A stretch of DNA of 64,000 bases from Mytilus edulis (Eukaryota): NCBI RefSeq assembly GCF_963676685.1, contig NC_092347.1, positions 4,774,001 to 4,838,000 of the forward strand, in the 5' to 3' direction. How positions within the stretch are numbered: the first letter of the stretch is position 1; every line of letters starts with the position of its first letter. Of the stretch, positions 5,507 through 44,390 are shown one piece after another. The notes under the pieces were generated by a model. It was given only the letters and a program-made list of their open reading frames with translations, made no database searches and had not been told where the DNA came from. The position numbers and the translations under genes were made by a program.

Positions 5507-5639
5507 AAGAAGGTAAAGAACTAAACAACTGAACCACGCTGCAGTAATTATACAGGTACTAACCCAAGAGAAAGTAGTGGTTTTCTTTTATCTTAATGTT
5601 TTTCTCCATTTTGAGTTTTGATTTTATCACTTTTTGACC

Positions 5640-6170
5640 TATTTGTGGTCCATGTTGATGTTTTCCTCGATTCATGTTGATGCCTTTTGTGGTTCATGTT
5701 GATGCTTTTTGTGGTCCATGTTGATACTTTTTGTGATTCATGTGGATACTTTTTGTGATTAATGTTGATGCTTTTTGTGATCCATGTTGATGCTTTTTGT
5801 GATTCATGTGGATACTTTTTGTGTTCCATGTTGATGCTCTTTGTGATTCATGTTGATGCTTTTTGTGATTCATGTGGATACTTTTTGTGTTCCATGTTGA
5901 TGCTATTTGTGATTCATGTTGATGCTTTTTGTGATCCATGTTGATGCTTTTTGTGTTCCATGTTGATGCTATTTGTGATTCATGTTGATGCTTTTTGTGA
6001 TTAATGTTGATGCTTTTTGTGATCCATGTTGATGCTTTTTGTGATCCATGTTGATGCTTTTTGTGATTCATGTGGATACTTTTTGTGTTCCATGTTGATG
6101 CTGTTTGTGATTTATGTTGATGCTTTTTGTGATTCATGAGGATACTTTTTGTGATTCATGTTGATGCTTC
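5640..6170. repeat. 22-bp minisatellite (gattcatgttgatgctttttgt)
   Basis: About 24 direct tandem copies. Generates the repetitive pseudo-ORFs at 5593-6137. Confidence 0.9.
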
Positions 6171-6380
6171 TTAGATCTTCTCTGTATGATTCGTTTTGAT
6201 GCTGATTTTGGGCTATTACTCTATTTTGAAATTTCATATTGATGCATTATGGTCTATTAGTTGATAATTTGTTGTAACGATTTTGTTATTCAATTTTATA
6301 CTTTGTTGATACTTTGTGTATTTATTCTGTTATTCATGTTGATAATTTGTTGTATATTTATTGGTGATACTTGTTGTATC

Positions 6381-7033
6381 AACTAGATATCATTGAGATA
6401 GGAACCATCTCTGTGGGCCCCGCTGTGAATAATGTGCATTAAAAAATTGTATCTTTACCATAGGACATGGGTTTGTCAACTGAAATCAAAGTTTTTGACC
6501 TTGACCTTTGACCTATGAAGTTGTAAATAAATTATGACACACCCTTTGGTGTTGGTTTATAAACATGTCAAGTATAAACTTTGAAATGATAAAGGTTCTC
6601 AAGATATAGAGCGGACACAATCTTTACCATAGGACATGGGGTTGTCAACTGAAACCAAAGTTTTTGACCTTGACCTTTGACCTAGGAAGTTGCACATAAA
6701 TTATGACACACCCTTTGGTGTTGGTTTATATACATGTCAAGTATAAACTTTGAAATCATAACGGTTCTCAAGATATAGAGCGGACACGATCTTCACCACA
6801 GGACACAGGGTTGTCAACTGAAACCAAAGTTTTTTTACCTTGACCTTTGACCTAGGAAGTTGTACATACATCATGACACGCCCTCTGGTGGTGGTTAATA
6901 AACATGTAAAGTATAAAGTATGAAATCATAATGGTTCTCTAGATATGGAGCGGACACAAAGTGTTACGGACGGACGGACGGACGGACGGACAGACTGATC
7001 ACTATAGGGGACCGCCTTTGGCGGGACCCTAAT
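6381..7033 (+). mobile_element. Helentron-associated (HINE/pearl-like) non-autonomous element with three 169-bp internal repeats
   Basis: Units start at 6452, 6621 and 6790. (GACG)n microsatellite at ~6967-6992. Terminal hairpin ggggaccgcc-ttt-ggcgggaccc at ~7007-7029. Interrupts a degenerate satellite. Confidence 0.7.
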
Positions 7034-8300
7034 TATGTTATTAATGTTGGTACTTGTTGTATCAAATCTGTTTTAAATGTTGATACATTTGTGTACTCTT
7101 TGTGTCTATTTTGGACATCGGTATACTACAGTTGCCTTTATTTGGTATTAATGTTGATACTTTGTTGTACTTATTTTTGTTATTAATAATTTGTACTTTT
7201 TTCTATTGGTTTTCTTATTAATGTAAATACTTTGTTGTGTCTTGTTTTGTTTTTCATGTTGGTACTTAGTTGTATTAATTTTATTATTCATGCTGAAACT
7301 TTGTTGTATTTATTTTGTTATTTATGTTGATGCTTTGTTGTTTCTATTTTATTATTCATATTGACACTTTGATGTGACTATTTTATTATTCAGGTTGATG
7401 CTTTGTTGTATCTTTTTTATTGTCTATGTTGATGATTTGTTGTGCATATTTTATTTTTCAGTTTGATAATTTGTTGTAAAGTATTCATGTTGATAATTTG
7501 TTGTGCATATTTTGTTATTCAGGTTGATAATATGTTGTAAATATTTTTATCCATGTTGATACTAGTTTGTTGTTTTAATTTGAGTATTCATGTTGATACT
7601 TTGTTGTTTCTATTGTATTATTTAGGCTGATAATTTGTTGTTTCTATTTTATTATTCAGGTTGATAATTTGTTGTGCATATTTTATCATTCATGTTGATA
7701 ATTTGTTGTGCATATTTTATTATTCATGTTGATAAATTGTGCATTTTTGTTTGTTATTTATGTCGATGCTTTGTTGTATCTTTTTTATTATTCATGTTGA
7801 AACTTTGAAGTATCTACTTTGTTATTCATGATGATAACTTGTTGAATCTATTTTGTTATTCATGTTTATGCTTTGTTGTATCTATTGTATTATGTTAATG
7901 AGTTGTTATGTTGTCTTTTTAATGATTCATGTTATGTTTGGCCGGCCATACTATAATTTATGTTAATGTTGCACGGAAACATTTCGAAATCCATTGTTTG
8001 TGATTCGTTGTGCTGATTTATTTTAGTATATTTTGTAATTTATGTTGAAAATACTTGCGTCCTTATTTTGACATTGGATTGATTTATTTTGTATTTTGTA
8101 TTTTTTATGCTTCATGTTGATGCGGTGTAGGTTAATTTGGCGATACTTAGTTGATGTTTGTGTGACAATTTTGTGAGTCATGTTGATTTTTGTTTGTGTC
8201 CTTTAAATATATTGACAATGTTTTTTTTGTATCTATGTTCCAATACCTTGTTACTGTTGCTTATTGTCAATTTTGTGCTTCATGACTATATACTTTTTGG
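7034..8300. repeat. Degenerate ~33-bp satellite (ttattcatgttgataatttgttgtgcatatttt), related to the 22-bp array
   Basis: Recurring catgttgat core with a ~33-bp period. The same satellite is present at ~6170-6380, left of the insertion. Confidence 0.65.
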
Positions 8301-9993: not shown

Positions 9994-10951
9994 TTTTTAT
10001 GCCCCACCTACGATAGTAGAGGGGCATTATGTTTTCTGGTCTGTGGCTCCGTTCGTCCGTCCGTCTGTGCGTCCGTTCAGGTTAAAGTTTTTGGTCAAGG
10101 TAGTTTTTGATGAAGCTGAAGTCCAATCAACTTGAAACTTAGTACACTTGTTGCTTATGATATGATCTTTTAAATTTTAAAGCCAAATAAGACTTTTGAC
10201 CCCAATTTCACGGTCCACTGAACATAGAAAATGAAAGTGGGAGTTTCAGGTTAAAGTTTTTGGTCAAGGTAGTTTTTGATGAAGCTGAAGTCCAATCAAC
10301 ATGAAACTTAGTACAATTGTTGCTTATGATATGATCGTTTTAATTTTAAAGCCAAATTAGACTTTCGACCCCAATTTCACGGTCCACTGAACATAGAAAA
10401 TGAAAGTGGGAGTTTCAGGTTAATGTTTTTGGTCAAGGTAGTTTCTGATGAAGCTGAAGTCCAATCAACTTGAAACTTAGTACACTTGTTGCTTATGATA
10501 TGATCTTTCTAATTTTAAGCCAAATTAGACTTTTGACCCCAATTTAACCGTCCACTGAACATAGAAAATGAAAGTGGGAGTTTCAGGTTAAAGTTTTTGG
10601 TCAAGGTAGTTTTTGATGAAGCTGAAGTCCAATCAACTTGAAACTTAGTAAACTTGTTGCTTATGATATGATATTTTTAATTTTAAAGCCAAATTAGACT
10701 TTTGACCCCAATTTCACGGTCCACTAATCATAGAAAATGAAAGTGGGCGTTTCAGGTTAAAGTTTTTGGTCAAGGTAGTTTTTGATAAAATTGAAGTCCA
10801 ATCAACTTGAAACTTAGTACATATGTTCCCTATAGTATAATCTTTCTAATTTTAATGCCAAATTAGATTATTACCCAATTTCACGGTCCATGGAACATGG
10901 TAAAGGATAGTGTGAGTGGGGCATCCGTGTACTTTGGACACATTCTTGTTT
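9994..10951. mobile_element. HINE/pearl-like element with five ~169-bp tandem internal repeats
   Basis: Terminal hairpin atgcccc...ggggcat and a (CCGT)n microsatellite. Units 'caggtta' start at 10078, 10247, 10416, 10584 and 10753. Ends ggggcatccgtgtactttggacacattcttgttt. Confidence 0.75.
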
Positions 10952-13900
10952 ATTGGACATTCACCACTAAAAAATTGGTTACACCCAGAACATGTATGCT
11001 TGCATAAAAGCCCCAAATGTATAGACACTCTGCGTATCAAATTCAAATAATACCACTCTAACATCTTCTTACTGCTATATTTTAAGCTTTGTTGGACGTG
11101 CTAAAATATAGTTGTCAGAGATAAAACCCGACCAAGACTTTATTCAGTTATATACGAACATAATCAAATTTTCACCTATCTTCGTCAAACTTTATCAATT
11201 GATTTGACAGAAGAGTCTGAATGTCTGTCTGTATACAGCGCATGATATCTGACTAGTTATTTTTTTTTAAACTTTTTTTTTATATTCCACTACTTGTAAT
11301 TAGACTCGATGTAATTCGGGGTAGGCACTTTCTTCAACTGTTGTCTGCTATCAGGAACTTTCCAAGATAGAAATGTTTCTAAAGTATTTGGGTAATCCTT
11401 GACCTTTTCCAATATGGACTTTAGTGTGGTCAAAATCATAAATTACATTATAATACTGTTACATACATGTACAGAATACACAAGCAAGTCAACTCATAAA
11501 AATCAGCTGAACATTCTTTACCGCTTTTGTTAAAGAGAAATCAAGCTTCTCGACGATAAAAAAAGATTGTGTCAAACTGCTATAGATCCAATGATATTAT
11601 TCCTGCAAATTGTGAGGTTCAAACTTCTTAGAATTATTACATTTTTGTCAATTGCAACAGGTCAAAGTAAATATTTTGTCAAAGTTTTTATGAAAATTAA
11701 ACGAGGCAAATCTATCCAAGTCAAAGTGTTGGGTACCCCTTTACAAAATGAAACAAGCTCAGACATTACCTTTAACACACTCATGTTTCCCTGTCATCGT
11801 ATAAACTATAAATTCTCGTTTCAGGTGAGGCAATACTGATAAATATAATGACTTCTATTATTTTGTGAGTTTATGTAAATCGTGTTGCATTTGTCTTGAA
11901 GTGAAATGTAAAATTGGAAAATATATCGATTACAACAGAAAGCTTTAATAATAACATTTGATATCAAACTTAATAATATCGGTTGTTTTTGGTTATGGAT
12001 TCTATTATGTTCTATTATCAGAACAGCATGCTATTGTTCATAGCCGTATTGATTCCATGTACTAGCTGTTTTACCGGAAAACATTACTAGAAAAAGAAAC
12101 ACTTTATTTGCTAATCTTAATAAATAAAAAGGGTATCGCAAGTCATTTATTTACCCAAGTGTTATAACATGACAACATTTGAACAGTCAATTAATTTATA
12201 ATAAAAGCCATTTAAAGCGGCAATTCCCGATTTGCAGAAAAAAGGTGAAATGTAACACGTTTTGAAAGCTCAGATCCATTACTAATTGTACATTTCACAT
12301 TAAGATGGGAGGAACAAATATCAATTAACAAATAACGTGAAAATTTACATATTTAATGGAAAATAAACAAATAAAATGCTTTAAAGTACAAGAGGTTTAC
12401 AATTGTAGAAAAGAGAGCATGCAAATGTTTTATTTAGGAATTGATTCAACAAATAAAGATTGAATGTAGAGACAGTATGATTGTTTATATGAGAAGATAA
12501 CTTTAACAAGTATTACTCTGGAAAAATCAACATTAAGTGATATACTAGTATCAACTGTTCAACATGTTCAATATTTAACCGCTTTTGTGAGACTGAGTAT
12601 CATTCAAATTGTGTTGATCAAAATGAAGGGCACAAAGTCCGATAGCCACTTAAAAAAGTTTTTGGTTGGACAGATTTGTTTTACCAAGCCACAAGCCACC
12701 TACGGATCCCCAATGAGTTTTTGGAAGAGTCTCTCTACATCAGGGAGAATGTGATACTCCCTTACATGAAACATCAAATGCAATTTTCCTATGCCGACTG
12801 GACGTGGCTGAGTATAGTTACACATCCCGCAAAACAATCTTTTATAGCAATTTTACGTTGGATGGGAAAAGTGAAGGTACCAGTCTTGTATTACAACTCC
12901 AGTTTCAAAACGTGGAGGGAAACAAAATAGTCTATTTTTTCCTGATTTTTTTTGTGGACTCAGTTTTTTTCTGTTTGATTATAGGTTTATGCTGAATTAA
13001 AACATATACATGTATATAGATTTAAAAAAAAATCTTTCATCTCTTCTGTGATATTAATCCAGGAAAGCGGAAGGATAATATCATGTTTACTGGAATTGGT
13101 GCGGCCTAGTAAAAACAGCAAACAGAAAGTAGAAAAAAAAATGTTTTGACTTCAGGGTTCGTAACTTTTTATTCTTCGTGGCATGACCCACTTTTTTTTT
13201 CGATTAAATCATAATTTCACATTAGTACATACATGATATGAACATGGATTTTTTTTGCTATGTAGCATTTTTTATTTTTTTATTTTCAAAGATCAGCTTG
13301 CATGTAAGCCTATGGAGCAGTCAATTACAAGACTGCAATCTAAAGGCTAACATTACTGCTGTAGTCCGGTCAACCTGTCATGTGAATTGGTCATCCACTG
13401 GTGATTCAATGTTTTCTTCTATATATTTTGTTGTTTAATAGTATTGTTGGTTACATATAGCTTTCACACTGCTCGTATCTCACATTTCATTGTTTTCATT
13501 AAGCTTAATGACACATTCGGCTTCATTCAAAAAGAACTTGAATCGTTTACTTTGAATGCACCAGAAGATTAATCTATTTTCGATAAAATATTTTTTTATT
13601 ATAAATTATTTAAGTCAATTATTTAAAACATTATAAAGTTAAGATTTATAATATTGTTTACAATCTCTAGAGGTCGTATATTCCTCCTGAAACAATCAAT
13701 TTTGACGACCAAACTGGGAGGTTTTACTACCACAATAACAGATGTGCTTTCCGAGTTATGGAGATTTACTACTGCAGTTGCAATAACTTATGATATAATA
13801 TTGTAGTAATTATTTAAATTCTCTTGAGCTTAGTGACTGTCACACTCATGTTTTGTACTAATACTTGTTATGAGCTTAGTGACTGTCACATGCATGTTTT

Positions 13901-14732
13901 GTACTTATACTTGTTATGAGCTTAGTGACTGTCATATGCATGGTTTGTACTAATACTTGTTAAGAGCTTAGTGACTGTCACATGCATGTTTTGTACTTAT
14001 ACTTGTTATGAGCTTAGTGACTGTCACACGCATGTTTTGTACTAATACTTGTTAAGAGCTTAGTGACTGCACATGCATGTTTTGTACTAATACTTGTTAT
14101 GAGCTTAGTGACTGTCACATGCATGTTTTGTACTAATACTTGTTAAGAGCTTAGTGACTGTCATATGCATGGTTTGTACTAATACTTGCTATGATCTTAG
14201 TGACTGTCAAGTGCATGTTTTGTACTAATACTTGATATGAGCTTAGTGACCGTCACATGCATGTTTTGTACTAATACTTCTTAAAAGCTTAGTGACAGTC
14301 ACATGCATGTTTTGTATTAATACTTGTTAAAAAACTACACATGCATGTTTTGTACTAATACTTGTTAAGATCTTAGTGACTGTCATATGCATGGTTTGTA
14401 CTAATACTTGTTAAGAGCTTAGTGACTGTCACATGCATGTTTTGTACTTATACTTGTTATGAGCTTAGTGACTGTCACACTCATGTTTTGTACTAATACT
14501 TGTTATGAGCTTAGTGACTGTCACGTGCATGTTTTGTACTAATACTTGTTAAGAGCTTAGTGGCTGTCATATGCATGGTTTGTACTAATACTTGTTATGA
14601 GCTTAGTGACTGTCACACGCATGTTTTGTACTAATACTTGTTATGAGATTAGTGACTGTCACATGCATGTTTTGTACTAATACTTGATATGAGCTTAGTA
14701 AAAATATAAAACAACACGTTTAATAATTCATT

Positions 14733-14774
14733 GCGTCCGAAGCGCTTTTCTGGATTTACCTTCATCAGGAACGC
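14733..14774 (-). ncRNA. Minimal type I hammerhead ribozyme (copy 1)
   Basis: Minus strand reads GCGUUC-CUGAUGA-AGGUAAAUCCA-GAAA-AGCGCU-UC^GGACGC. Stem I is GCGUUC/GGACGC, conserved cores are CUGAUGA and GAAA, stem III is the palindrome AGCGCU. Predicted cleavage after UUC, between 14739 and 14738. Confidence 0.85.
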
Positions 14775-15082
14775 TCAAAGCCAAACATTTGAAATCCGAA
14801 GATGTATAAGTACCGAAAATCGTTGAAGAGCTATATGTTAAAAATACCTAAAATAAATAGCCAAATTCATCTAAAGCCAACTTTGCCTGAGGGAGTTGAA
14901 ACCTTAGTTTTATAATAATTTCAAAATTTATAAACGGACAATTTTAGTAAAGTTTGTTTAATCATGTCAGTACCGAAACACTGACTACTGAGCTGATGAT
15001 ACCCTCGGGGACTGATAGTCCACCAGCAGAGGTATCGACCCAGTGATGTAAAAATATAAAACAACACGTTTAATAATTCATT

Positions 15083-15124
15083 GCGTCCGAAGCGCTTTTC
15101 TGGATTTACCTTCATCAGGAACGC
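15083..15124 (-). ncRNA. Minimal type I hammerhead ribozyme (copy 2)
   Basis: Identical to copy 1, 350 bp away. Predicted cleavage between 15089 and 15088. Confidence 0.85.
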
Positions 15125-16699
15125 TCAAAGCCAAACATTTGAAATCCGAAGATGTATAAGTACCGAAAATCGTTGAAGAGCTATATGTTAAAAATACCTA
15201 AAATAAATAGCCAAATTCATCTAAAGCCAACTTTGCCTGAGGGAGTTGAAACCTTAGTTTTATAATAATTTCAAAATTTATAAACGGACAATTTTAGTAA
15301 AGTTTGTTTAATCATGTCAGTACCGAAACACTGACTACTGAGCTGATGATACCCTCGGGGACTGATAGTCCACCAGCAGAGGTATCGACCCAGTGATGTA
15401 AAAATATAAAACAACACGTTTAATAATTCATTGCGTCCGAAGCGCTTTTCTGGATTTACCTTCACCGTCACATGCATGTTTTGTACTTTTACTTGTTAAG
15501 AGCTTAGTGACAGTCATATGCATGTTTTGTATTAATACTTGTCAAGAGCTTAGTGACTGCACATGCATGTTTTGTACTAATACTTGTCAAGATCTTAGTG
15601 ACTGTCATATGCTAGTTTTTACTAATACTTGTTATGAGCTTAGTGACTGTCACATGCATGTTTTATACTTATACTTGTTATGAGCTTAGTGACTGTCATA
15701 TGCATGGGTTGTACTAATACTTGTTATGAGCTTGACTGTCGCATGCATGTTTTGTACTATTACTTGTTAAGAGCTTAGTGACTGTCATATGCATGTTTTG
15801 TACTAATACTTGTAATGAGCTTAGTGACTGTCACATGCATGTTTAATACTTATACTTGTTATGAGCTTAATGACTGTCATATGCATGTTTTTTACTAATA
15901 CTTGTTATGAGCTTAGTGGCTGTCATATGCATGTTTTGTACTAATACTTGTTAAGAGCTTAGTGACTGTCACATGCATGTTTTATACTTATACTTGTTAT
16001 GAGCTTAGTGACTGTCATATGCATGTTTTGTACTAATACTTGTAATGAGCTTAGTGACTGTCACATGCATGTTTTATACTTATACTTGTTATGAGCTTAA
16101 TGACTGTCATATGCATGTTTTGTACTAATACTTGTTATGAGCTTAGTGGCTGTCATATGCATGTTTTGTACTTATACTGGTTATGAGCTTAGTGACTGTC
16201 ACATGCATGTTTTATACCTATACTTGTTATGAGCTTAGTGACTGTCATATGCATGTTTTGTACTAATACTTGTTAAGAGCTTAGTGACAGTCACATGCAT
16301 GTTTTGTACTAATACTTGTTATGAGCTTAGTGACTGTCATATGCATGTTTTGTACTGATACTTTTTATGAGCTAAGTGACAGTCACATGCATGTTTTGTA
16401 CTTATACTTGTTATGAGCTCTGTGAAATTTGGGGACTGCAGGTCTTGTTGTGCTATTATGCTGAGTTATTTTGAGTATGACAATTTTCTAATGTTTTCAC
16501 CCACGTGTAGCAAAATGATTAAAATCCGTATACACCCAGTTCTTATCACCTGCTGTAGGTGTTGTTTAGAAATCTTAAACTTTCATCTGTAAACACTTAA
16601 GACTCTGACAATGAATAAAGGACTTTAAAACAACACAATGCAAATTAAAGATTCATGTTTGTCCTACTCAATACTTCCCGTACTTTTAAAACATTTTCA

Positions 16700-19005: not shown

Positions 19006-19758
19006 TTAAACAATCGTCTCTTTTCTTTTCATTGGACTCGCTCCTTTCAACAGCATGCGCTTAATCTCCTTTGCAGCAAGGTGACCAGAATATCTATCGG
19101 TTTCGTTCTGAAGTACTGGTATGTTGGTTGTTGTATTAGAACAATGTCTCAAATACCCCCAGCATGCATCACTTAACTCTGGAACATAAAATTCTTCAGC
19201 AGCACATGTTATACCAACAACTGTAGTCACGTCCATAACAACACTTCCGGTGTGTACAAAGTTGACGAATTGTCTAAACACATCAATGTCGTAGTTATGT
19301 ATTGGTATGTTTTGGTTGTCGTTTTTCTTTGTTTTTTTCTGAATCTGTGGACTATTCTGTTGTAGAATCATATCTTGAAGTACTTTACTTCTTGACGCAA
19401 TGACTGCCTTTAAACCATGGACAAGGAAGCGTTGTGGTCCAATTTCGAATGTAACATCACAAAGTTGTGGCATAGACAAGATGTACTTGATATTGTTGAC
19501 TACTGTTTCTGTATTGGTCACGTGCATTGTATCACCAGGATCTTCAAGGTCATCCAAATCATCACCTTCATCGTCACTTTCACTTGAATTGTCAGTGTCT
19601 GAAGATGAACCGCTGTTGCAGTTATCTGATTCGGCTCCCGATGCTGACAAACTGGGTTCCGAGTCGGATACAAATACTGGAGATTCATAACCAGAAGAAG
19701 ACTCTTCTTCAGAGTCATCCAAGTTCAACAAAGGTACTCTGTCTGCTAAGAAGTTCAT
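19006..19758 (-). CDS. Intronless BTB/POZ-domain protein (serine-enriched protein-like), paralog A, 250 aa
   Basis: BTB signature LCDVTFEIG...VHGLKAVIASRSKVL...IPIHNYDIDVFRQFVNFVHTGSV...AAEEFYVPELSDAC. Acidic Ser-rich N-terminus. ORF intact and conserved with paralog B. Confidence 0.9.
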   Translation of the reverse strand: MNFLADRVPLLNLDDSEEESSSGYESPVFVSDSEPSLSASGAESDNCNSGSSSDTDNSSESDDEGDDLDDLEDPGDTMHVTNTETVVNNIKYILSMPQLCDVTFEIGPQRFLVHGLKAVIASRSKVLQDMILQQNSPQIQKKTKKNDNQNIPIHNYDIDVFRQFVNFVHTGSVVMDVTTVVGITCAAEEFYVPELSDACWGYLRHCSNTTTNIPVLQNETDRYSGHLAAKEIKRMLLKGASPMKRKETIV

Positions 19759-19819
19759 AGTTATAATGTATTTTGTTCTCTTTCAATTGATTTTATGATA
19801 TCCAGAAACAAAACTAAAT

Positions 19820-21642: not shown

Positions 21643-22393
21643 GGCGTATGACATTTGCGCCGTTTTTTAAATTTTCATTCTTTCATTTGCACCGATTTCA
21701 TTTTTTCATTTGCGCCGATTTTATATTTGCTCCTAATTGGATTTACAGGTAAAAGAATACTTGTACATGTACTGTACCGTGAAGGTATATTGATAAAATC
21801 TGGTTATAAACTTAGGTTTTAGTTAATTTTTCATATTGTTCTGAACTTTGCTGTAAATTGATGGACATATTGCGCACTGCAACGAGCCGAGGAGTCAATT
21901 CTTTAACCATCGATGGCCATACACATAAGTACGTAAGCCAGACAAAGAAAAGATGGACTTCGTTATTGACAATTACAACAAATATAGAAGAGACGAAATC
22001 ACAAGAAAGGAATATATTAGATGTGTTGCCTATAAATACTCAGCAAGAACAGATTTATGATTTTAATGTATTCCGTTTTTATGGATTTGAATGCTGTAAA
22101 TAGATTTTCAATTCGTCATTTTAGTATAAACCAGAGTGCTTTTATCTAAGGTTTTTACTTCTTGATTTTAAAGTATGTGAATATAGTGTACAACTAGTTG
22201 ACGGAAGAGGTCTATGATGATAAATGAAAAATAACATGACTTGGATGGAGAGTTGTCTCATTTGCACTCATACCACATCTTCTTATATCTATTCACCTGT
22301 AATTAAACTGTAAATTACCTGTAAAAAATCGGCGCAAATGAAAACAAAAATCGGCGCAAATGAAAACAAAAATCGGCGCAAATGCAAAACGCC
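21643..22393. mobile_element. Mutator/foldback-like MITE
   Basis: TIRs ggcgtatgacatttgcgccg / cggcgcaaatgcaaaacgcc with tandem subterminal aaaatcggcgcaaatg repeats. Flanking direct repeat tttctgacg at 21634-21642 and 22395-22403 (a 9-10 bp TSD). Confidence 0.75.
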
Positions 22394-22429
22394 GTTTCTG
22401 ACGTCAGACACGCGAATCAATGAATGTGT

Positions 22430-22621
22430 TGTAATAATCCTGTGTGGGGATACGAGAGGCAAAATATTAGGAACTCATAAAATTACATCCTTTAATGGCG
22501 CTTGCAAAACGAAAAAGAGACAGTACATGTGATTACGATTACATACATGTATATAACAAAATCATATACGGACTGAACAGTATTTCCGGAAACGCGGATT
22601 CAACCCCCTATATATATTACA
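22430..22621 (-). repeat. 3' LTR (192 bp)
   Basis: tgtaata...tattaca terminal inverted repeat. Differs from the 5' LTR only at 22468 (t vs g). Confidence 0.95.
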
Positions 22622-22651
22622 AAAAAATTCTGAATTTGCAGGGACAGAAAT

Positions 22652-23215
22652 TCATTTTTGACACTGAACCTTCACAGTCTTAGTATTTATATACAATTTA
22701 CCAAAATCAAGCACTATCTTGTTAGTAAATAAATAATTGGTACCTAAAATCAACGGATTCGAGGTTTGAGATAGTATGTACACATGTAACCAATGTTTGC
22801 CAGTCGGAACTTTGTTCTTTATACGTGCTGTACCAACAATATTTATTGACGCATTATTTGCCAAAAGTATCTTTTCGTTTGCACTTTTAAAAGAATTACG
22901 GTAATGTTCTGGCAACGAATTAAAAAGTTGTTGTGATATTACATTTATGGAACTGCCACTATCTATAAGTGCGGCTATCTCTATATTGTCTATAGTAACT
23001 GGCATATATAAAAATTTGGGGCGAGATGACTCCTCTCCTTCTATTTCAGAACAAGTACTATCATATGAGTCAGATTCATTATTGTCACAAGTATAATTAC
23101 AAGATTGTACATGTACGTTGTGTTGTCTACTAGGAGAGCGACTACGCCTTCTGGCACTTAAGGGTGGTCGCCCGAGGGAGCGTGCCCAGTGTCCCCCGGG
23201 TTCTGACGGTTTCCC
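22652..23215 (-). CDS. pro: Retroviral-type aspartic protease, -1 frame relative to gag; pol truncated after it
   Basis: ALIDSGSSINVIS catalytic motif and LILGTNYL. The frame is open from the slippery site at 23215 through the annotated ORF 23005-22652. Confidence 0.88.
   Translation of the reverse strand, partial: GKPSEPGGHWARSLGRPPLSARRRSRSPSRQHNVHVQSCNYTCDNNESDSYDSTCSEIEGEESSRPKFLYMPVTIDNIEIAALIDSGSSINVISQQLFNSLPEHYRNSFKSANEKILLANNASINIVGTARIKNKVPTGKHWLHVYILSQTSNPLILGTNYLFTNKIVLDFGKLYINTKTVKVQCQK
23151..23215 (-). promoter_or_regulatory. Programmed -1 ribosomal frameshift signal (slippery heptamer plus H-type pseudoknot)
   Basis: G GGA AAC at 23215-23209 in the gag frame, then an 8-nt spacer. 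Stem 1 is CCCGGGGGA (23200-23192) / UCCCUCGGG (23179-23171). Loop CUGGGCAC can pair with downstream GUGCCAG (23157-23151). Confidence 0.8.
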
Positions 23216-24036
23216 TGTTGGCTTGAAAAACGTAAACAGTGTGACGCTGAATGCCCATACTGACTACAGAGCTGACATTGTGAACTTGGGTTAGCCTGAC
23301 CTTCACCATCCCACATACAATCGCGCCTAAAATGTTGTGGCCCTTTACAAGCGTGACAATAAAAGGATGGACGATTTTCGGGCCGCCTGTTCAAATTGTA
23401 ATCCCGCTGTTCTTTAGGGTAATCAGACTGACGGAAATTTTGATAATTTTGCCTGCGATTTTGAGGTTGCTGTCTGGGCTGTTCTGATTGAGCTGAAAGT
23501 TTTTGTATTGCACTTGTCAAATCTTGAATTTGTGATTTCAGTTCATGTACGACTGACGGGTTTTGTTCGGCAACAACAGCTTTAGGTGTAATTTGTTGTT
23601 TGATGGCAGAAACAGATATTTCATCATGTAACCTGTACCCGTATGCTTCGCCCATTTTGGCAGCTGATAGTGCACTATTACTGTCTTTGTGGTTACCTGC
23701 CCTTACAAAGAAAGCTAACTTTTCGGGAAGACCCTTGATGAATTTGGTGAGAATATCATGATCAGCTTTGTGTAATAATTGAGCTTTTTCTACAAGCTGG
23801 CAGTAAAAATCTTCGAGTGCTTGACCCGGTGACAACTTTATGTGTTCAAAAACCTCATTTTCTAGCATGATTGTTGGACTTTGCCAATCGAGATTAACAT
23901 ATTTTCTCTTAAACAGTTCAATAAGTTTTTCCCAGGAGCTTTTGTCATTGGATGTTAATGAGTTAAACCACGTGAGGGCTGGGCCCGTTAACTGGAGATG
24001 AAACGCTGCTATTCGCCTTTGGTTTTCATAAGGCAT
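23158..24036 (-). CDS. gag: Gag (capsid-like region and two CCHC zinc knuckles), C-terminal part
   Basis: LTGPALTWFNSL...SWEKLIELFKRKY capsid motif and KFIKGLP. Knuckles CHACKGPQHFRRDC and CQLCSQYGHSASHC (CX2CX4HX4C). Confidence 0.9.
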   Translation of the reverse strand: MPYENQRRIAAFHLQLTGPALTWFNSLTSNDKSSWEKLIELFKRKYVNLDWQSPTIMLENEVFEHIKLSPGQALEDFYCQLVEKAQLLHKADHDILTKFIKGLPEKLAFFVRAGNHKDSNSALSAAKMGEAYGYRLHDEISVSAIKQQITPKAVVAEQNPSVVHELKSQIQDLTSAIQKLSAQSEQPRQQPQNRRQNYQNFRQSDYPKEQRDYNLNRRPENRPSFYCHACKGPQHFRRDCMWDGEGQANPSSQCQLCSQYGHSASHCLRFSSQQGNRQNPGDTGHAPSGDHP

Positions 24037-24482
24037 GATATTATGTAGTGTAGCAAAAAAACAAGTCCATTTTCATGGGGATATCCCCCGAATTTCCTAC
24101 ACGGAGCTAATTTTTCCATGACAGCTGTATGTACTATTCTAGGTATACTTGTATGTTCTAATCTAGGCGTACTTGTAGTGTAACATGCACTTGTGTTATA
24201 AGTCAAATTATTTTGATGCAATCTGTTAACCAAACTTATTTGTGGTGTTAAAATTGGCATAGAACGATCTAATGTGTTGGTTTGAGAGGGCCTAGTCGGG
24301 GCTAATAAATGCAAACTTTGATCTAATTCTTGGTTTTGAGAAGGCCTAGTCGGTGCCAATAAATATGAACTTAAAAGTGAATCGTCGGTAAATTCGTCGT
24401 CCTTTTCAACTAATGAGTGTAAACTTAAAGTAGACTCACCATCGCTCATATCATTTAAATTGCTATATTTCGGCGCCGACAT
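24009..24482 (-). CDS. gag: Gag N-terminal part, separated from the rest by a frameshift at a T-run near 24055
   Basis: Ends in the capsid-start-like motif KFGGYPHENGLVF. The -1 frame continues FATLHNIMPYENQRR into the main gag ORF. Confidence 0.65.
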   Translation of the reverse strand: MSAPKYSNLNDMSDGESTLSLHSLVEKDDEFTDDSLLSSYLLAPTRPSQNQELDQSLHLLAPTRPSQTNTLDRSMPILTPQISLVNRLHQNNLTYNTSACYTTSTPRLEHTSIPRIVHTAVMEKLAPCRKFGGYPHENGLVFLLHYIISCLMKTKGE

Positions 24483-24748
24483 CAGCGAAGAAAAAAAACC
24501 AACACCGTAATGAGATAAATCTCACGTACAGATAAAAAAATTAAATGTGCATGTTAAATAATACGCCTGTAATGAGATGAATCTCACGTACAGAAAACTG
24601 GGATTCATAAGGCAACTTGAAGAAAATCATAATCTGCATACTAAACACAATTTAAACACACAAAGTTTATTATTTATTCAATAGTAACATACCAGACAAT
24701 GAGATCAATCTTACGTATCTGAATCACGAAAACTGGAAATGTAGAAAC

Positions 24749-25471
24749 TTATTGACAGTCAGCAGGCAGACGCAAGGCGATTCTTATAACCCATAACCTG
24801 GCTAATTCTGGTATAGGATGAACTCCATCGATATAAAGTGCGTAATTTAAATTATATGATGCCTGGGAACGCTCTCTATGTTTTCTGTTCCGTTCCAAGT
24901 CAAGACCAAATAATGGAGAGTTTTTATGAAAAAGTGTATTTATCTGTGAAATATATTTATTCACTTCTGTAATTTGATGTTCAAGTTTTTTATCCTGTGT
25001 TCGAAATTTTTCTGGAGAAGCGTGGTCGTGACGCTCGTTCCACAAGTAGATGGAATAATATGGGATTTCGAGAAATACCAGTGAAATTGTAGGATAATCT
25101 TTCAAAAAGTCATATATCTGTTTATATGTTTGACACACGTGTCGTACGGTCGTGAAATCCTCCGATCTTAAATCAATGAATTTTCCCTTTTTCTCTGTGA
25201 GATCACAGGTCCCGAGCCAAATGTAGAGTGTAATGTGGTTAGAGTCAAGTTCTTGAATTTTGGTTGCTAGATTGTCTTTAAGCCACCTATATTGTTCTTC
25301 AACACCCACACCACGCCTACACCAAAAATAAAGTTTATTCTCGGGGTGTCTTTGTGAATTAACGACCTCCTGTAGATATATCCCCTTGCTGTCAGAGAGT
25401 ATAACAGGAATTTTCCCTAAATTTCCTAAGGAATTCAACCTTGGTTCGAGGTTCCGAATTTGCTTATTCAC
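24749..25471 (-). CDS. SGNH/GDSL hydrolase (esterase)-like accessory protein of the LTR element, ~240 aa
   Basis: Block I VILSDSKG, block II RRG, block III IWLGTCDL and block V IDGVHP appear in canonical order and spacing. There is no ATG at the 5' end (GTG start, or a mutated or spliced start). Confidence 0.78.
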   Translation of the reverse strand: MNKQIRNLEPRLNSLGNLGKIPVILSDSKGIYLQEVVNSQRHPENKLYFWCRRGVGVEEQYRWLKDNLATKIQELDSNHITLYIWLGTCDLTEKKGKFIDLRSEDFTTVRHVCQTYKQIYDFLKDYPTISLVFLEIPYYSIYLWNERHDHASPEKFRTQDKKLEHQITEVNKYISQINTLFHKNSPLFGLDLERNRKHRERSQASYNLNYALYIDGVHPIPELARLWVIRIALRLPADCQ

Positions 25472-25671
25472 CTTCGATAAACTCTTAGGAAAATGTAAAG
25501 TACACTTAATATATTGTTAATAAATGAAAATGTTATTTCTAATAATTCGGACACACATACAAAAATTTGACCACCCACGTGGTTTTCCCACTTCAGTGAA
25601 AATTATGGGAAAAAAATTTCAGTTCATTTCAGTTCAGGTTTACACAAATAAAGTCCTTTGAATGAAGTTAT

Positions 25672-25689
25672 ATTTCGGGTCCTCCGCCA
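25672..25689 (-). promoter_or_regulatory. Primer-binding-site-like sequence TGGCGGAGGACCCGAAAT
   Basis: Immediately follows the 5' LTR and begins TGG (complement of tRNA CCA). Cognate tRNA not identified. Confidence 0.7.
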
Positions 25690-25881
25690 TGTAATAATCC
25701 TGTGTGGGGATACGAGAGGCAAAATATGAGGAACTCATAAAATTACATCCTTTAATGGCGCTTGCAAAACGAAAAAGAGACAGTACATGTGATTACGATT
25801 ACATACATGTATATAACAAAATCATATACGGACTGAACAGTATTTCCGGAAACGCGGATTCAACCCCCTATATATATTACA
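25690..25881 (-). repeat. 5' LTR (192 bp)
   Basis: Direct repeat of 22430-22621. Confidence 0.95.
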
Positions 25882-26909
25882 GTGTTTGTAGATAGATGTT
25901 TTTGTGTTCTGTTAAATTGTTCGTTTTAAAATTGTTACATGATGATGACTGCTGTACCCATATTTTGACTACTTTCTTTATTATGTCTGTTTAGTTCACG
26001 CATCATTGTAAATATAACGGAATTTGATGAGACTGTCATCAAAGTGAGAGGTTTAGCGCTTTAAAACCAGGTTTAATCCACCATTTTCTACATTTGAAAA
26101 TGCCTGTATCAAGTCAGGAATATGACAGTTCATGTCCATTCGTTTTTGATGTGTTTTGTCATTTGATTTTGCCATGTGATTATGGACTTTCCGATTGGAT
26201 TTTCCTCTGAGTTCAGTATTTTTGTGATTTTACTTTTTGTTACCCTTAATTACTCAAAACTTTTACCAAATTCTTTGATAGATACAAAGATTGGGTGTTA
26301 AAGTTTGGCTATACCTGTAGATTTTTTTGTTTCGCATTTTTTCCAGTTGGGACTGTTTATGTCTGATTATTTACCCATCGTTGAAGGCCGTATGCAGACC
26401 TTATCGCCATACGTACACGAGCAACACGACTGGTGCCATACATGGAGCAGGATTTGCTTACTCTTTTGTAGCACATGAGATCACCCGCGGTTTTGATGAC
26501 ATTCGTGCTAACGTTGTCCAGTCTTTTGCAAGATTAGATCGTATGTAAATAATTTGCATACTTTTACATATTCGAAACATAAATACCTACCTAGACCTAG
26601 AAAATTCAGAGTATGGACAGAATTCTTTCAGTAATGAACTAATCAAGCAGTGCATGAATTAATTACCTCAGAAATATGGTCTTATTTGCCCAGTTTTAAA
26701 ATGACATATCTAGCTGTTGTAGAGGACATAAAAGTTTATGCAGTGAATGTTAATACCAAACTCTGCTGTCTCATGGCTGAATTATATCTCTTCTTTTTGA
26801 AATATTTGTCTAATTTTGCCTTCTGCTTTTAGATTCATAGTTATTGACTACATGCATTGCTATATGTTAATAATAGTGCTCTCTGCTTGTTGGGAATTTC
26901 AAAATTATC

Positions 26910-27825: not shown

Positions 27826-28578
27826 TTAAACAACAGTCTCTCTTCTTTTCAGTGGATTCACTTCTTTTATAAGTATGCTCTTAATCTCCTTTGCAGCATG
27901 GTGACCCGAATATCTATCGGTTTCGTTCTGGAGTATTGGTCTGTTGGTTGCTGTAGTAGAGCAACGTCTCAAATACCCCCAGCATGCATCACTTAACTCT
28001 GGAACATCAAATTCTTCAGCAGCACATGTCATTCCAACAACTGTAGTCACGTCCATAACAACACTTCCTGTGTGTACAAAGTTGATGAATTGTCTAAACA
28101 CATCAATGTCGTAGTTATGTATTGGTATGTTTTGGTTGTCGTTTTTCTTTGTTTTTTTCTGAATCTGTGGACTATTCTGCTGTATCATCATTTCTTGAAG
28201 TACTTTACTTCTTGACCCAATGACTGCCTTTAAACCATGAACAAGGAAGCGTTGTGGTCCAATTTCAAATGTAACATCACAAAGTTGTGGCATAGACAAA
28301 ATGTACTTTATATTGTTGACTACTGTTTCTGTATTGGTCACGTGCATCGTATCACCAGGATCTTCAAGGTTATCCAAATCATCACCTTCATCGTCACTTT
28401 CACTTGAAATATCATTTTCTGAAGATGAACCGCTGTTGCAGTTATCTGATTCACCGCCCGATGCTGACAAACTGGGTTCCGAGTCGGATACAAATACTGG
28501 AGAGTCATAACCAGAAGATGACTCTTCTTCAAGGTCATCCAAGTTCAACAAAGGTACTCTGTCTGCTAAGAAGTTCAT
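27826..28578 (-). CDS. Intronless BTB/POZ-domain protein (serine-enriched protein-like), paralog B, 250 aa
   Basis: Colinear with paralog A; I count 29 of 250 aa different. The true start is the ATG at 28578 (MNFLADRV), not the TTG at 28605. Confidence 0.9.
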   Translation of the reverse strand: MNFLADRVPLLNLDDLEEESSSGYDSPVFVSDSEPSLSASGGESDNCNSGSSSENDISSESDDEGDDLDNLEDPGDTMHVTNTETVVNNIKYILSMPQLCDVTFEIGPQRFLVHGLKAVIGSRSKVLQEMMIQQNSPQIQKKTKKNDNQNIPIHNYDIDVFRQFINFVHTGSVVMDVTTVVGMTCAAEEFDVPELSDACWGYLRRCSTTATNRPILQNETDRYSGHHAAKEIKSILIKEVNPLKRRETVV

Positions 28579-28637
28579 AGTTATAATGTATTTCGTTCTT
28601 TTCAAAATGCTTTATGATATCTAGAGACAAAACGGAA

Positions 28638-29699: not shown

Positions 29700-31035
29700 C
29701 AGGCAGGTACTTATATGTTCTTTAGCTGCAGGCAGGTACTTATATGTTCTTTAGCTCCAGGCAGGTACTTATATATGTTCTTTAGCTCCAGGCAGGTACT
29801 TATATGTTCTTTAGCTCCAGGCAGGTACTTATATGTTCTTTAGCTCCAGGCAGGTACTTATATGTTCTTAAGCTCCAGGCAGGTACTAATATGTTCTTAA
29901 GCTCCAGGCAGGTACTTATATGTTCTTAAGCTCCAGGCAGGTACTTATATGTTCTTTAGCTCCAGGCAGGTACTTATATGTTCTTTAGCTGCAGGCAGGT
30001 ACTTATATGTTCTAAAACTCCAGGCAGGTACTTATATGTTCTTAAGCTCCAGGCAGGTACTTGTATGTTCTTAAGCTTCAGGCAGGTACTTATATGTTCT
30101 TAAGCTGCAGGCAGGTACTTATATGTTCTTTAGCTGCAGGCAGGTACTTATATGTTCTTTAGCTGCAGGCAGGTACTTATATGTACTTTAGCTGCAGGCA
30201 GGTACTTATATGTTCTTAAGCTCCAGACAGGTACTTATATGTTCTTTAGCTGCAGGCAGGTACTTATATGTTGTTTAGCTGCAGGCAGGTACTTATATGA
30301 TCTTTAGCTGCAGGCAGGTACTTATATGTTCTTTAGCTGCAGGCAGGTACTTATATGTTCTTAAGCTCCAGACAGGTACTTATATGTTCTTTAGCTGCAG
30401 GCAGGTACTTATATGTTCTTTAGCTGCAGGCAGGTACTTATATGTTCTTTAGCTGCAGGCAGGTACTTATATGTTCTTAAGCTCCAGACAGGTACTTATA
30501 TGTTCTTTAGCTGCAGGCAGGTACTTATATGTTCTTAAGCTCCAGACAGGTACTTATATGTTCTTTAGCTGCAGGCAGGTACTTATATGTTCTTTAGCTG
30601 CAGGCAGGTACATATATGTTCTTTAGCTCCAGGCAGGTACTTATATGTTCTTTAGCTCCAGGCAGGTACTTATATGTTCTTTAGCTGCAGGCAGGTACTT
30701 ATATGTTCTTTAGCTGCAGGCAGGTACTTATATGTTCTTAAGCTCCAGACAGGTACTTATATGTTCTTAAGCTGCAGGCAGGTACTTATATGTTTAGCTC
30801 CAGGCAGGTACTTATATGTTCTTTAGCTCCAGGCAGGTACTTATATGTTCTTAAGCTCCAGACAGGTACTTATATGTTCTTTAGCTCCAGGCAGGTACTT
30901 ATATGTTCTTTAGCTCCAGGCAGGTACTTATATGTTCTTTAGCTGCAGGCAGGTACTTATATGTTCTTTAGCTGCAGGCAGGTACTTATATGTTCTTTAG
31001 CTGCAGGCAGGTACTTATATGTTCTTAAGCTGCAG
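29700..31035. repeat. 29-bp minisatellite (caggcaggtacttatatgttctttagctc), ~46 copies
   Basis: Period of 29 (29700/29729). Highly homogeneous. Confidence 0.95.
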
Positions 31036-34142: not shown

Positions 34143-34855
34143 GTAAGGATACATATTCTCCCCCTTCTGAACACGTCAACCCCAGTAAGGATACATATTC
34201 TCCCCCTTCTGAACACGTCAACTCCAGTAAGGATACATATTCTCCCCCTTCTGAACACGTCAACCCCAGTAAGGATACATATTCTCCCCCTTCTGAACAC
34301 GTCAACTCCAGTAAGGATACATATTCTCCCCCTTCTGAACACGTCAACTCCAGTAAGGATACATATTCTCCCCCTTCTGAACACGTCAACTCTAATAAGG
34401 ATACATATTCTCCCCCTTCTGAACACGTCAACTCTAGTAAGGATACATATTCTCCCCCTTCTGAACACGTCAACTCCAGTAAGGATACATATTCTCCCCC
34501 TTCTGAACACGTCAACTCCAGTAGGATACATATTCTCCCCCTTCTGAACACGTCAACTCCAATAAGGAAACATATTCTCCCCCTTCTGAACACGTCAACT
34601 CCAGTAAGGATACATATTCTCCCCCTTCTGAACACGTCAACTCCAATAAGGATACATATTCTCCCCCTTCTGAACACGTCAACTCCAGTAAGGATACATA
34701 TTCTCCCCCTTCTGAACACGTCAACTCTAGTAAGGATACATATTCTCCCCTTCTGAACACGTCAACTCTAGTAAGGATACATATTCTCCCCCTTCTGAAC
34801 ACGTCAACTCCAGTAAGGATACATATTCTCTCCCTCCATAACACGTCAACTCCAG
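34143..34855. repeat. 42-bp minisatellite (aggatacatattctcccccttctgaacacgtcaactccagta), ~17 copies
   Basis: Period of 42. Accounts for the four overlapping repetitive ORFs. Confidence 0.95.
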
Positions 34856-41914: not shown

Positions 41915-44390
41915 ACTGACCTTATCACAAAATTTATCAATAACTCACCATTAATGGTTCCCCTCAAACTGACATAATCACAAACTTTATCAATGACTCA
42001 CCAATAATGGTTCTCCCCAAACTGACAAAATCACAAACTGTATCAATGACTCATCATTAATGGTTCCCCTCACACTGACATTAACACAAACTATATCAGT
42101 AACTCACCATTAATGGTTCCCCTCAAACTGACATAATCAGACACTTTATCAATAATAACTCACCAATAATGGTTCCCCTCAAACTGCCATAAACACAAAC
42201 TATATATATATCAATGACTCACCAATATGGTGTCCCTCAAACAGACATAACCAAACTTTTTTTCAATGATTCACCATTAATGGTTCCCTCAAACTGACAT
42301 AATCATAAATTATATCATTGACTAACTATTAATGGTTCCCCTCAAACTCAAACTGGCTTTATCAATGAAACACCATTTATGGTTTCCCTCAAACTGACAT
42401 AATCACAAACTTTATCAATGACTCACCATCTATGGTTCCCCTCAAACAATTTACCAATGACTCACCATTAATGGTTCCCCTCAAACTCAAACTGACATAA
42501 TCACAAGCTTTATCAATGAAACACCATTTATGGTTCCCACAAACTGACATAATTACGAACTTTATCAATGACTCACCGTTAGTGGTTCCCTCCAACTGAC
42601 ATAATCACAAATGTTATCAATAACTAACCATCAATTGTTCCCCTCAAACTGACAGAATCCATACTTAATCAATGACTCGCCATTAGTGGTTCCCTACAAT
42701 CTGACATAATCACAAATGTTATCAATAACTAACCATCAATTGTTCCCCTCACACTGACATAATCACAAATTTTATCAATAACTAACCATCAATTGTTCCC
42801 CTCAAACTGACAGAATCCATACTTAATCAATGACTCGCCATTAGTGGTTCCCTACAATCTGACATAATCACAATTATATCAATGACTCTCCATTAATGGT
42901 TTCCCTTAAAACTGACATAACCATAAACTTTATCAATGACTCACCATTAATTGTTCCCCTCAAACTGACATAATCACAAACTTTATCAATGACTCATCAC
43001 TAATGATTCCCCAAAAACTGACATAATCACAAACTTTATCAAATGACTCACCATTAATGGTTCCCCTCAAACTGACATAATCACAAACTTTATCAATGAA
43101 ACACCATTTATGGTTCCCCACAAACTGACATACTCACAAATTTAATAAATGAAACGCTATTTATGGTTTTCAACAAACTGACATAATCACAAACTTTATC
43201 AAATGACTCACCATTAATGGTTCCCCTCAAACTGACATAATCACAAAGTTTATCAATGAAACACCATTTATGGTTTCCCTCAAACTGACATAATCACAAA
43301 GTTTATCAATGAAACACCATTTATGGTTCCCTACAAACTGACATAATCACAAAGTTTATCAATGAAACACCATTTATGGTTCCCCACAAACTGACAATCA
43401 CAAACTTTATCATTGACTCACCATTAATGCCCCCCTTCCAAATGACATAATCACAAACTTTATCAATGACTCACCATTAATGGTTCCTAACAAACTGACA
43501 TAATCACAAACTTTATCAATAACTATCCATTAATGGTTCCCCCCAAACTAACAAAATCACAAATTTTATCCATGAAACACCATTTATGGTTCCCCTTAAA
43601 CTGACCTACTCACAAGCATTATCAATGACTCACCATTAGTGGTTCATCACAAACTTTATCATTGACTCACCATTAATGGTCCTCCCCCAAAAAAAATTGA
43701 CATAATCCCAAGCTTTATCAATGAAACACCATTTATGGTTCCCATCTAACTGACATAATCACAAACTTTATCAATGACTCACCATTAATGGTTCCCAACA
43801 AACTGACAGTGACAAGCTTTATCAAATGACTCGCCATTAATGGTTCCCCTCAAACTGACATAATCACAAACTTTATCAATGACTCACCATTAATGGTTCC
43901 TAACAAACTGACATAATCACAAACTTTATCAATAACTATCCATTAATGGTTCCCCCCAAACTAACAAAATCACAAATTTTATCCATGAAACACCATTTAT
44001 GGTTCCCCTTAAACTGACCTACTCACAAGCATTATCAATGACTCACCATTAGTGGTTCATCACAAACTTTATCATTGACTCACCATTAATGGTCCTCCCC
44101 CAAAAAAAATTGACATAATCCCAAGCTTTATCAATGAAACACCATTTATGGTTCCCATCTAACTGACATAATCACAAACTTTATCAATGACTCACCATTA
44201 ATGGTTCCCAACAAACTGACAGTGACAAGCTTTATCAAATGACTCGCCATTAATGGTTCCCCTCAAACTGACATAATCACAAACTTTATCAATGACTCAC
44301 CATTAGTGGTTCCCTGCAAATTGACATAATCACTAGTTTTATCAATGACTCACCATTAATGGTTCCCCTCAAACTGACATAATTACAAAC
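41915..44390. repeat. 53-bp minisatellite (aaactgacataatcacaaactttatcaatgactcaccattaatggttcccctc) with higher-order duplications
   Basis: About 46 diverged copies. Diagnostic variants recur at 413-bp (43521/43934) and 158-bp (42653/42811) offsets. Confidence 0.92.

Follow-up and report, generated by a model that had tools for sequence, protein, structure and literature searches.

Results

Structure of the element

The 64,000-nucleotide stretch of Mytilus edulis DNA analysed here (contig NC_092347.1, positions 4,774,001 to 4,838,000; hereafter the window, to which all positions refer) contains a 3452-bp retrotransposon with long terminal repeats (LTRs) at 22430-25881, every coding frame of which lies on the minus strand. 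Between a sequence similar to primer-binding sites (PBS) and gag, this element carries an open reading frame (ORF) with the fold of SGNH hydrolases (25516-24749), and gag is followed by a protease (23263-22652). This order agrees with the one given in an earlier reading made from the letters alone (the sequence-only reading), the PBS being better called PBS-like. We conclude that the locus very probably holds a dead copy, reduced by an internal deletion, of an autonomous Mytilus family of Ty3/Gypsy elements having the order LTR, PBS, esterase, gag, pol in the -1 frame, LTR.

The element is bounded by two 192-nt direct repeats, which differ at a single position (22468/25728). The 5' LTR (25690-25881, minus strand) starts with TG, ends with CA and has a 7-bp terminal inverted repeat; the 3' LTR lies at 22430-22621 on the same strand. 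The letters GTGT (plus strand) flank the element on the left (22426-22429) and on the right (25882-25885), and a random 4-bp match is expected in about 0.6% of cases. The repeats, their mismatch and the target-site duplication had been described in the same way before. The TG...CA termini and the 4-bp duplication fit Ty3/Gypsy elements, for which 4-6 bp are expected, and so does a gag having a capsid domain and a CCHC knuckle and followed by an aspartic protease, gag being frameshifted in this copy. The LTRs are thus nearly identical, as claimed, but the recent age deduced from them holds only loosely, because the divergence of 1/192 carries a 95% interval of 0.01-2.9%; in addition, the 3' LTR may derive from a different insertion.

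The PBS-like sequence (25672-25689, minus strand; lower boundary approximate) adjoins the 5' LTR directly and starts with TGG. It gave no match in Rfam, and no tRNA genes were found in the 64-kb window. Upstream of the esterase, a frame of 16 codons (25690-25640, minus strand) starts with an ATG that straddles the LTR end and the PBS. This frame was considered as a spliced start of the esterase and set aside; the relatives start at the downstream position.

The frame of the SGNH/GDSL-fold hydrolase is open from 25516 and has 255 codons from stop to stop, 245 of them (24749-25486, minus strand) counted from the start position of the family. No ATG is present anywhere in this frame. The codon at 25486-25484 encodes Lys, while 156 of the 160 near-full-length relatives used for residue counts (45 of 205 had been dropped for length) have their first Met there. 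As gene callers always begin with Met, it is the start position that counts in this comparison; two genomic loci described below, L001 and L002, have real ATGs at this position.

The gag gene is spread over two frames, 24521-24009 and 24072-23158. Its N-terminal part (24069-24482, minus strand) has candidate ATGs at 24482 and 24449, lies in a frame different from that of the remainder and is 97% identical to the relative P0209. The frameshift falls ahead of the capsid domain, at 24058-24068 on the minus strand, where 11 nt stand in place of 10 codons in the relatives P0067 and P0214. The capsid and C-terminal part (23158-24057, minus strand) matches Pfam Retrotrans_gag (E 9.7e-08) and contains CCHC knuckles at 23358-23317 and 23277-23236. 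The protease frame is -1 relative to gag, and the overlap contains one candidate slippery heptamer, GGGAAAC (23215-23209, minus strand). The RNA fold downstream of this heptamer was no better than that of shuffled sequences (z -0.14) in a check with pseudoknots outside its scope. Short internal duplications were seen in the N-terminal region of gag (54-bp and 24-bp units) and in the spacer between the esterase and gag (29 bp), at 24126-24372 and 24507-24597.

The remaining 5' part of pol (22655-23263, minus strand) encodes an aspartic protease with a DSG motif at 22963 (Pfam gag-asp_proteas, E 4.2e-05; 96% identity to P0209 and P0211). The TGA at 22654-22652 that closes this frame is premature, because similarity to the pol of P0067, P0210, P0212, P0214 and P0218 passes through it, reaching 22628 in P0210, P0067 and P0212 and 22625 in P0214 and P0218. 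The stop and the 30 nt of post-protease similarity (22622-22654, minus strand) end at the LTR boundary, and the reading frame of pol runs into the first base of the 3' LTR. The 3-6 nt left before the TG of the LTR are therefore too short for a polypurine tract, and none was found there: the last 15 nt include 6 purines and end in a T run. Relative to P0212, approximately 3.9 kb of pol is missing. As the sequence-only reading had stated for the element, no reverse transcriptase (RT), RNase H (RH) or integrase (IN) was detected by tblastn in the element or in the remaining 64-kb window, which also yielded no other copy, solo LTR or pol remnant of the family. That reading had missed the missing esterase ATG, the gag frameshift, the premature TGA and the lack of a polypurine tract.

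The SGNH-fold esterase family

The esterase ORF contains the motifs SDS, GTCD and DGVH, with GTCD in place of the usual GxND, as had been noticed earlier. By motif position, the active-site codons would be those of Ser (25390-25388), the block II Gly (25312-25310), the block III Cys (25207-25205), Asp (24829-24827) and His (24820-24818), all on the minus strand. The fold comparison proposed in the sequence-only reading was run on an AlphaFold2 model built from a 52-sequence alignment, which had a mean predicted local distance difference test score (pLDDT) of 93.3 and a predicted template modelling score (pTM) of 0.89. This predicted model resembled the GDSL hydrolase structures 3p94 (Z 17.4, root-mean-square deviation 2.9, 181 aligned residues) and 4rw0 (Z 17.4, deviation 2.6, 172 aligned), and Foldseek matched it to GDSL/SGNH hydrolases with E values down to 1.7e-07. 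The OSK domain of Oskar also appeared among the fold matches (Z 14.6), ranking below the ordinary GDSL hydrolases, and the O-acetyltransferases PatB and OatA share the fold as well. The SGNH alpha/beta fold of the ORF is confirmed at the level of the predicted model.

Meanwhile, Pfam gave no GDSL match for the window ORF, and its GDSL models matched only 2-3 of the 52 aligned members. The SGNH assignment therefore rests on the fold. A profile of the family found 0 matches among PDB sequences, and a viral fold library returned generic phage and giant-virus SGNH domains only. The esterase structure of the element ZfL2-1 was absent among the PDB fold matches listed, by which kinship with it is neither shown nor excluded. 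In the ESM Atlas, the first matches were unnamed clusters labelled as mollusc or annelid (taxa being given for few members), followed by clusters with GDSL families on 21-30% of their members. The family comprised 64 matches among 304 candidates, and 670 clusters at 50% identity were matched with E up to 0.001, the best 150 of which were examined.

Counted by motif position in the 160 relatives, the Ser-Asp-His triad is complete in 150; Ser is present in 158, Gly in 149, Asp in 152 and His in 152. Block III has Cys in 157 and Asn in 2, so that the Asn of GxND, to which an oxyanion-hole role has been ascribed in SGNH hydrolases (PMC10792757), appears by motif position to be replaced by Cys. The isoelectric point (pI) exceeds 9 in 131/160 relatives. 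A hydropathy scan revealed no membrane span or signal-like segment in the window protein (maximum over 19 residues 0.88), and 7/160 relatives reach 1.6.

The window esterase is 97% identical to P0001 of Mytilus galloprovincialis. The start position excluded, the two differ at 7 residues. All 7 differences are conservative, while 14% would be expected for random single-base changes, and because of this we see signs of purifying selection during the divergence of the window copy and P0001. The count of conservative substitutions was used here instead of dN/dS.

Relatives of the element and linkage of the esterase to gag and pol

A search with the protease (PR) returned 12 longer proteins. Two of them, the Mytilus coruscus gene models P0209 and P0211, are 96-97% identical to the gag/protease of the window and continue into RT or RT and RNase H. 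The order PR-RT-RH-IN, which the window copy lacks, was met in P0212, P0215, P0217, P0220 and L002; relatives with the full order stand at 34-51% identity. P0217 and P0220 have a weak dUTPase-like segment directly after the protease, at about the start of which the window copy ends. The protein identity of 96-97% to records of two Mytilus species, M. galloprovincialis and M. coruscus, is compatible with recent activity or horizontal transfer.

Three of the 208 proteins of the esterase family (P0013, P0067 and P0139) are joined to gag or pol of the window type. P0067 comprises the esterase, gag, protease and RT, and in P0013 the esterase is fused to the last ~80 residues, the C-terminus, of pol; P0013 is probably another internal-deletion derivative. 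By eye, the pol tail in P0013 (P0012-like clade) and the C-termini of P0212, P0217 and P0220 look like chromodomains, with no Pfam match.

Of the 9 pattern matches from one genome scan, 3 were confirmed, and these lie at two loci: L001 (JBEVXV010000410.1) and L002 (JBEVXV010000340.1). Both are contigs of a bacterial metagenome-assembled genome (MAG) assigned to Sedimenticola in GTDB, and evidently they are animal Gypsy retrotransposon DNA contaminating it. P0039 is likewise labelled as a protein of a Candidatus Thiodiazotropha MAG. In L002, the esterase is intact, gag is of the PNMA type and an uninterrupted frame of 1535 codons encodes PR-RT-RH-IN. The first 75 nt of this locus are found again 10,804 nt downstream, preceded by a CA-NN-TGG junction, and along the unit an LTR end is followed by a PBS-like site, the esterase, gag and pol, one LTR end being visible. 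The period of 10,804 nt suggests a tandem or circular form. From the stop of pol to the LTR end, a span of approximately 3.7 kb (6846-10580 of L002), no ATG-started ORF exceeds 117 aa. In L001, the same CA-NN-TGG junction is followed by an esterase with one in-frame stop and by gag. The order of a PBS-like site, the esterase and gag was thus found in 2/2 loci with DNA context. L002 is distant from the window lineage, with 33% identity in the esterase, 29-30% in pol, 37% in RT and a gag that cannot be aligned.

These comparisons support an autonomous, esterase-bearing Mytilus family. A chance nested insertion, which the sequence-only reading had named as an outcome that would count against it, does not agree with the linkage to gag or pol in P0013, P0067, P0139, L001 and L002. 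Judged from the sequences of these relatives, the family has had its esterase for a long time.

The esterase was also encountered in other surroundings. In P0065 and P0066 (two of the three long fusions found) and in P0118, it is joined to PHD-finger or APE-endonuclease sequence, partners which we take to be those of elements like long interspersed nuclear elements (LINEs). The join in P0065 presumably contains a 2A-like motif. A tree was built with FastTree from 177 sequences over 238 columns and rooted at the midpoint; partial sequences were excluded except six with context. It showed three separate clades: a window-type clade of 26 sequences (support 0.999), to which P0013, P0067, P0139 and the window belong, an L001/L002-type clade of 47 (0.85) and a LINE-like clade of 30 (0.88). 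Equally tight clustering of random tips had p 0.0007 for the window type and p 0.014 for the LINE-like type, figures to be read with the labels being few and shared by kin. We treat it as a lead that the esterase family is not confined to Gypsy elements.

Genomic surroundings

The element is flanked by two tandem BTB/POZ-domain paralogues (19009-19782 and 27829-28611, minus strand) with 88% nucleotide identity over ~1.08 kb. No empty paralogous insertion site was found in this tandem duplication. A unit resembling a miniature inverted-repeat transposable element (21643-22393), whose inverted arms of 22-23 bp repeats lie ~600-700 nt apart, ends 37 bp from the element. Minisatellite arrays with units of 21-169 bp occupy 4595-7893, 10076-10917, 13825-16419, 29700-31035, 34143-34855 and 41915-44391, and a perfect tandem duplication of 350 bp (14698-15464) breaks into a 46-bp array.

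Discussion

Origin of the copy

Priming of plus-strand DNA requires a polypurine tract, and integrase leaves internal sequence abutting the first base of an LTR at its target. Since the copy has an exact 5' end and a target-site duplication, and since priming needs the tract, the parent element would have had one. Judging by its sequence, the present copy would be unable to prime its plus strand, and no further move of it is to be expected.

We propose that a parent still carrying a polypurine tract would have integrated and produced the GTGT duplication. Integrase would then have linked an LTR end from the same family to pol immediately downstream of the protease, either by a nested insertion in the same orientation or in an auto-integration circle. 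Homologous recombination between LTRs would afterwards have removed ~4 kb or more and left one LTR pair with the original target duplication. Nested insertion or auto-integration and LTR-LTR recombination follow established retrotransposon biology, and this route probably accounts for the truncation. As ~3.9 kb of pol is missing, we estimate that a deletion of random extent would stop at the first base of the LTR in about one of several thousand cases. Taken as a whole, that is, a dead deletion derivative of an autonomous family, the proposed origin of its truncation and a hydrolase role of the ORF, we give this interpretation a probability of about 0.7.

Several points weigh against it. The window contains no second copy of the family, and the junction need not be unique. 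The gene model of P0209 splices over the gag break, and those of P0209 and P0211 splice over the stop; the break and the stop may be common to a subfamily rather than private to this copy. Three disabling changes are many for LTRs that differ at 1/192 sites. The fully coding relative L002 belongs to a distant lineage and has a single visible LTR end. P0067 and the LINE-like fusions come from automatic gene prediction. Moreover, the block III Cys in the place of the oxyanion-hole Asn could lower or change the activity of the hydrolase.

The number of disabling changes and the skipped positions in the two M. coruscus models would also suit a parent that was already coding-dead but still competent in cis, with its polypurine tract kept, and that was spread in trans by intact members, so that only the final truncation would be local and the element would be neither particle-forming nor enzyme-carrying. 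We hold this unlikely: P0001, at 97% identity, starts with Met, a divergence of up to 2.9% permits tens of changes after insertion, and there are many reasons why a gene predictor would leave such regions out. Somewhat more doubtful is a reading in which the LTR of a nested copy was collapsed onto the outer 3' LTR during assembly, or in which microhomology led to an ordinary deletion that stopped at the LTR. A collapse would look identical, and the junction does lie on a repeat boundary, but the window has no N gaps, long tandem arrays are resolved elsewhere in it, and a chance end on precisely that base is improbable.

The sequence-only reading had offered two explanations for the missing genes, a deletion derivative of an autonomous esterase-bearing family and a particle-forming, enzyme-carrying lineage mobilised in trans. 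The former is supported by the continuation of P0209 and P0211 into RT and RNase H, by the joined esterase of P0067 and by the intact L002. That the element was copied in trans in this exact form, with its own particles and esterase, is hardly credible to us. Its near-identical LTRs, intact target duplication and PBS-like site would fit such copying, for which the rotifer non-autonomous element TelKA2n, described as having lost most of pol and kept its extra ORF (PMC5408684), offers a parallel. However, the polypurine tract was not found, gag is frameshifted before the capsid, the esterase has no ATG, and the window holds no second copy of this form. Non-autonomous terminal-repeat retrotransposons in miniature (TRIMs), according to PMC10886601, retain both the PBS and the polypurine tract; in the window element, the tract by which TRIMs and large retrotransposon derivatives would be recognised before the 3' LTR is lacking.

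Possible function of the esterase

In intact members, the ORF would yield a soluble, basic serine hydrolase of 245 aa from the first cistron of the element RNA, and this protein would probably be an active hydrolase. It may act as a slow hydrolase of lipid or acyl esters that binds anionic membranes and would place the retroelement particle at the membrane without being a fusogen. The esterase of the LINE ZfL2-1 has been reported to have a pI of 10.8, to hydrolyse p-nitrophenyl esters slowly and to bind anionic phospholipids (PMC3905857). Because the basic pI and the lack of a membrane span resemble this protein, we tentatively put membrane targeting by a lipid hydrolase ahead of the other roles considered, on the strength of analogy.

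One of these roles is that of an RNA-binding or scaffold protein like the OSK domain of Oskar, or of an acyltransferase acting through the conserved Cys, instead of a plain hydrolase. The OSK fold match (Z 14.6), the basic pI together with a basic hairpin, the block III Cys in 157/160 relatives and the fold shared with PatB and OatA all leave room for it. However, a shared fold shows no function, OSK scores below the ordinary GDSL hydrolases (Z 17.4), and OSK is described as lacking the Ser (PMC10792757), which is present here in 158/160 relatives, with a full triad in 150/160. We therefore find this role unlikely. Still less can be said for an env substitute serving the exit or entry of particles without env, an idea already raised in the sequence-only reading and weakened by the present data. 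It is a formal possibility named for rotifer GDSL ORFs (PMC5408684, PMC6431247), and the identity of 96-97% across two Mytilus species would be compatible with recent spread between hosts. On the other side, the hydropathy scan detected no signal or transmembrane segment, the ORF lies 5' of gag and not in the env position, and the same paper on rotifer GDSL ORFs argues against an env role for those without such segments.

Comparison with known systems

Among the systems described, the rotifer LTR element Vesta (Rodriguez et al. 2017, PMC5408684) is alike in having a stand-alone GDSL/SGNH ORF with the catalytic residues kept and no coiled-coil or transmembrane part. The GDSL ORFs of rotifer LTR elements are reported as ORF3 downstream of pol, from an accessory pool shared with Penelope-like elements (PMC5408684, PMC6431247), whereas the esterase lies between the PBS and gag in the window, L001 and L002. 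The invariant S, G, N and H are described as intact in Vesta, while block III has Cys here, and the likeness is one of description, not of sequence. Vesta, Juno and TelKA are also described with a dUTPase between protease and RT, where P0217 and P0220 have their weak dUTPase matches. The ORF1p esterase of ZfL2-1 and of CR1, L2, RTEX and Penelope-like elements (Schneider et al. 2013, PMC3905857) shares the SGNH fold, the Ser-Asp-His residues, the basic character and the 5' position. It differs in being an ORF1p domain behind a coiled coil, with no Gag and with Asn195 in the oxyanion hole, while the window family has a separate ORF beside a true gag.

Mollusc Ty3/Gypsy elements (Metaviridae; Thomas-Bulle et al. 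2018, PMC6238403) agree with the window element and its relatives in the TG...CA LTRs, the 4-bp target duplication, gag and the PR-RT-RH-IN order of the relatives. That survey was based on RT/RNase H (with clades such as MolGy), and its accessible part has 0 mentions of esterase or hydrolase. The bivalve Gypsy element Steamer (Farhat et al. 2022, PMC8905726) likewise has short LTRs (153-219 bp), but it is described with a TGTAACA start, a Leu-tRNA PBS and a single gag-pol ORF, whereas in the window element the LTR starts differently, the PBS-like site is another one, and gag and pol occupy separate frames. Identity with Steamer was rejected on these grounds, and identity with Troyka on account of its reported CG...CG termini and 3-bp target duplication (PMC12440569), which the window element does not have.

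An extra ORF upstream of gag is reportedly found in plants as ORF0 of Retrosat2. Additional ORFs upstream of gag-pol are described in plant Ty3/Gypsy elements (Vicient and Casacuberta 2020, PMC7264820), which differ in their hosts and in a text that, as far as accessible, has 0 mentions of esterase. In the accessible texts of ten papers on molluscs, annelids and LTR elements (PMC6238403, PMC8220671, PMC13524379, PMC12440569, PMC11673190, PMC8556966, PMC8905726, PMC10294476, PMC10886601 and PMC7264820), the word was mentioned 0 times. In the open literature, with supplements, subscription journals, Repbase, Dfam and GyDB outside the search, no Gypsy element was found described as carrying an esterase ORF 5' of gag. 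Retroelement esterases are already known as LINE ORF1 and rotifer ORF3; a stand-alone esterase 5' of gag appears, within the literature searched, to be new.

Significance

The copy itself matters little, being an inert fossil between two BTB-domain genes. Its family adds to the retroelement-captured esterases a case in animal Gypsy elements where the esterase is the first cistron and lies 5' of gag. As most members have no Pfam match, such an ORF is likely to be annotated as a "hypothetical protein" of the host. Two lineages with gag proteins that cannot be aligned share the esterase, with a fixed Cys at the position of the oxyanion Asn and signs of purifying selection. The small, soluble, stand-alone protein, of which P0001 is a natural intact member, and its hundreds of relatives are material for testing the repeated recapture of SGNH domains by unrelated retroelements. 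A wider idea, to which we assign low odds, is that the 670 clusters represent a large, old, retroelement-specific family of Ser-Gly-Cys-His hydrolases, a portable 5' module that would have been passed around in molluscs and annelids between LINE-like elements and two or more Gypsy lineages, and that would lipid-modify the particle or anchor it to membranes and so help elements without env to move between cells or hosts. If this were true, the horizontal spread of LTR elements in bivalves could have a testable mechanism in the portable esterase module.

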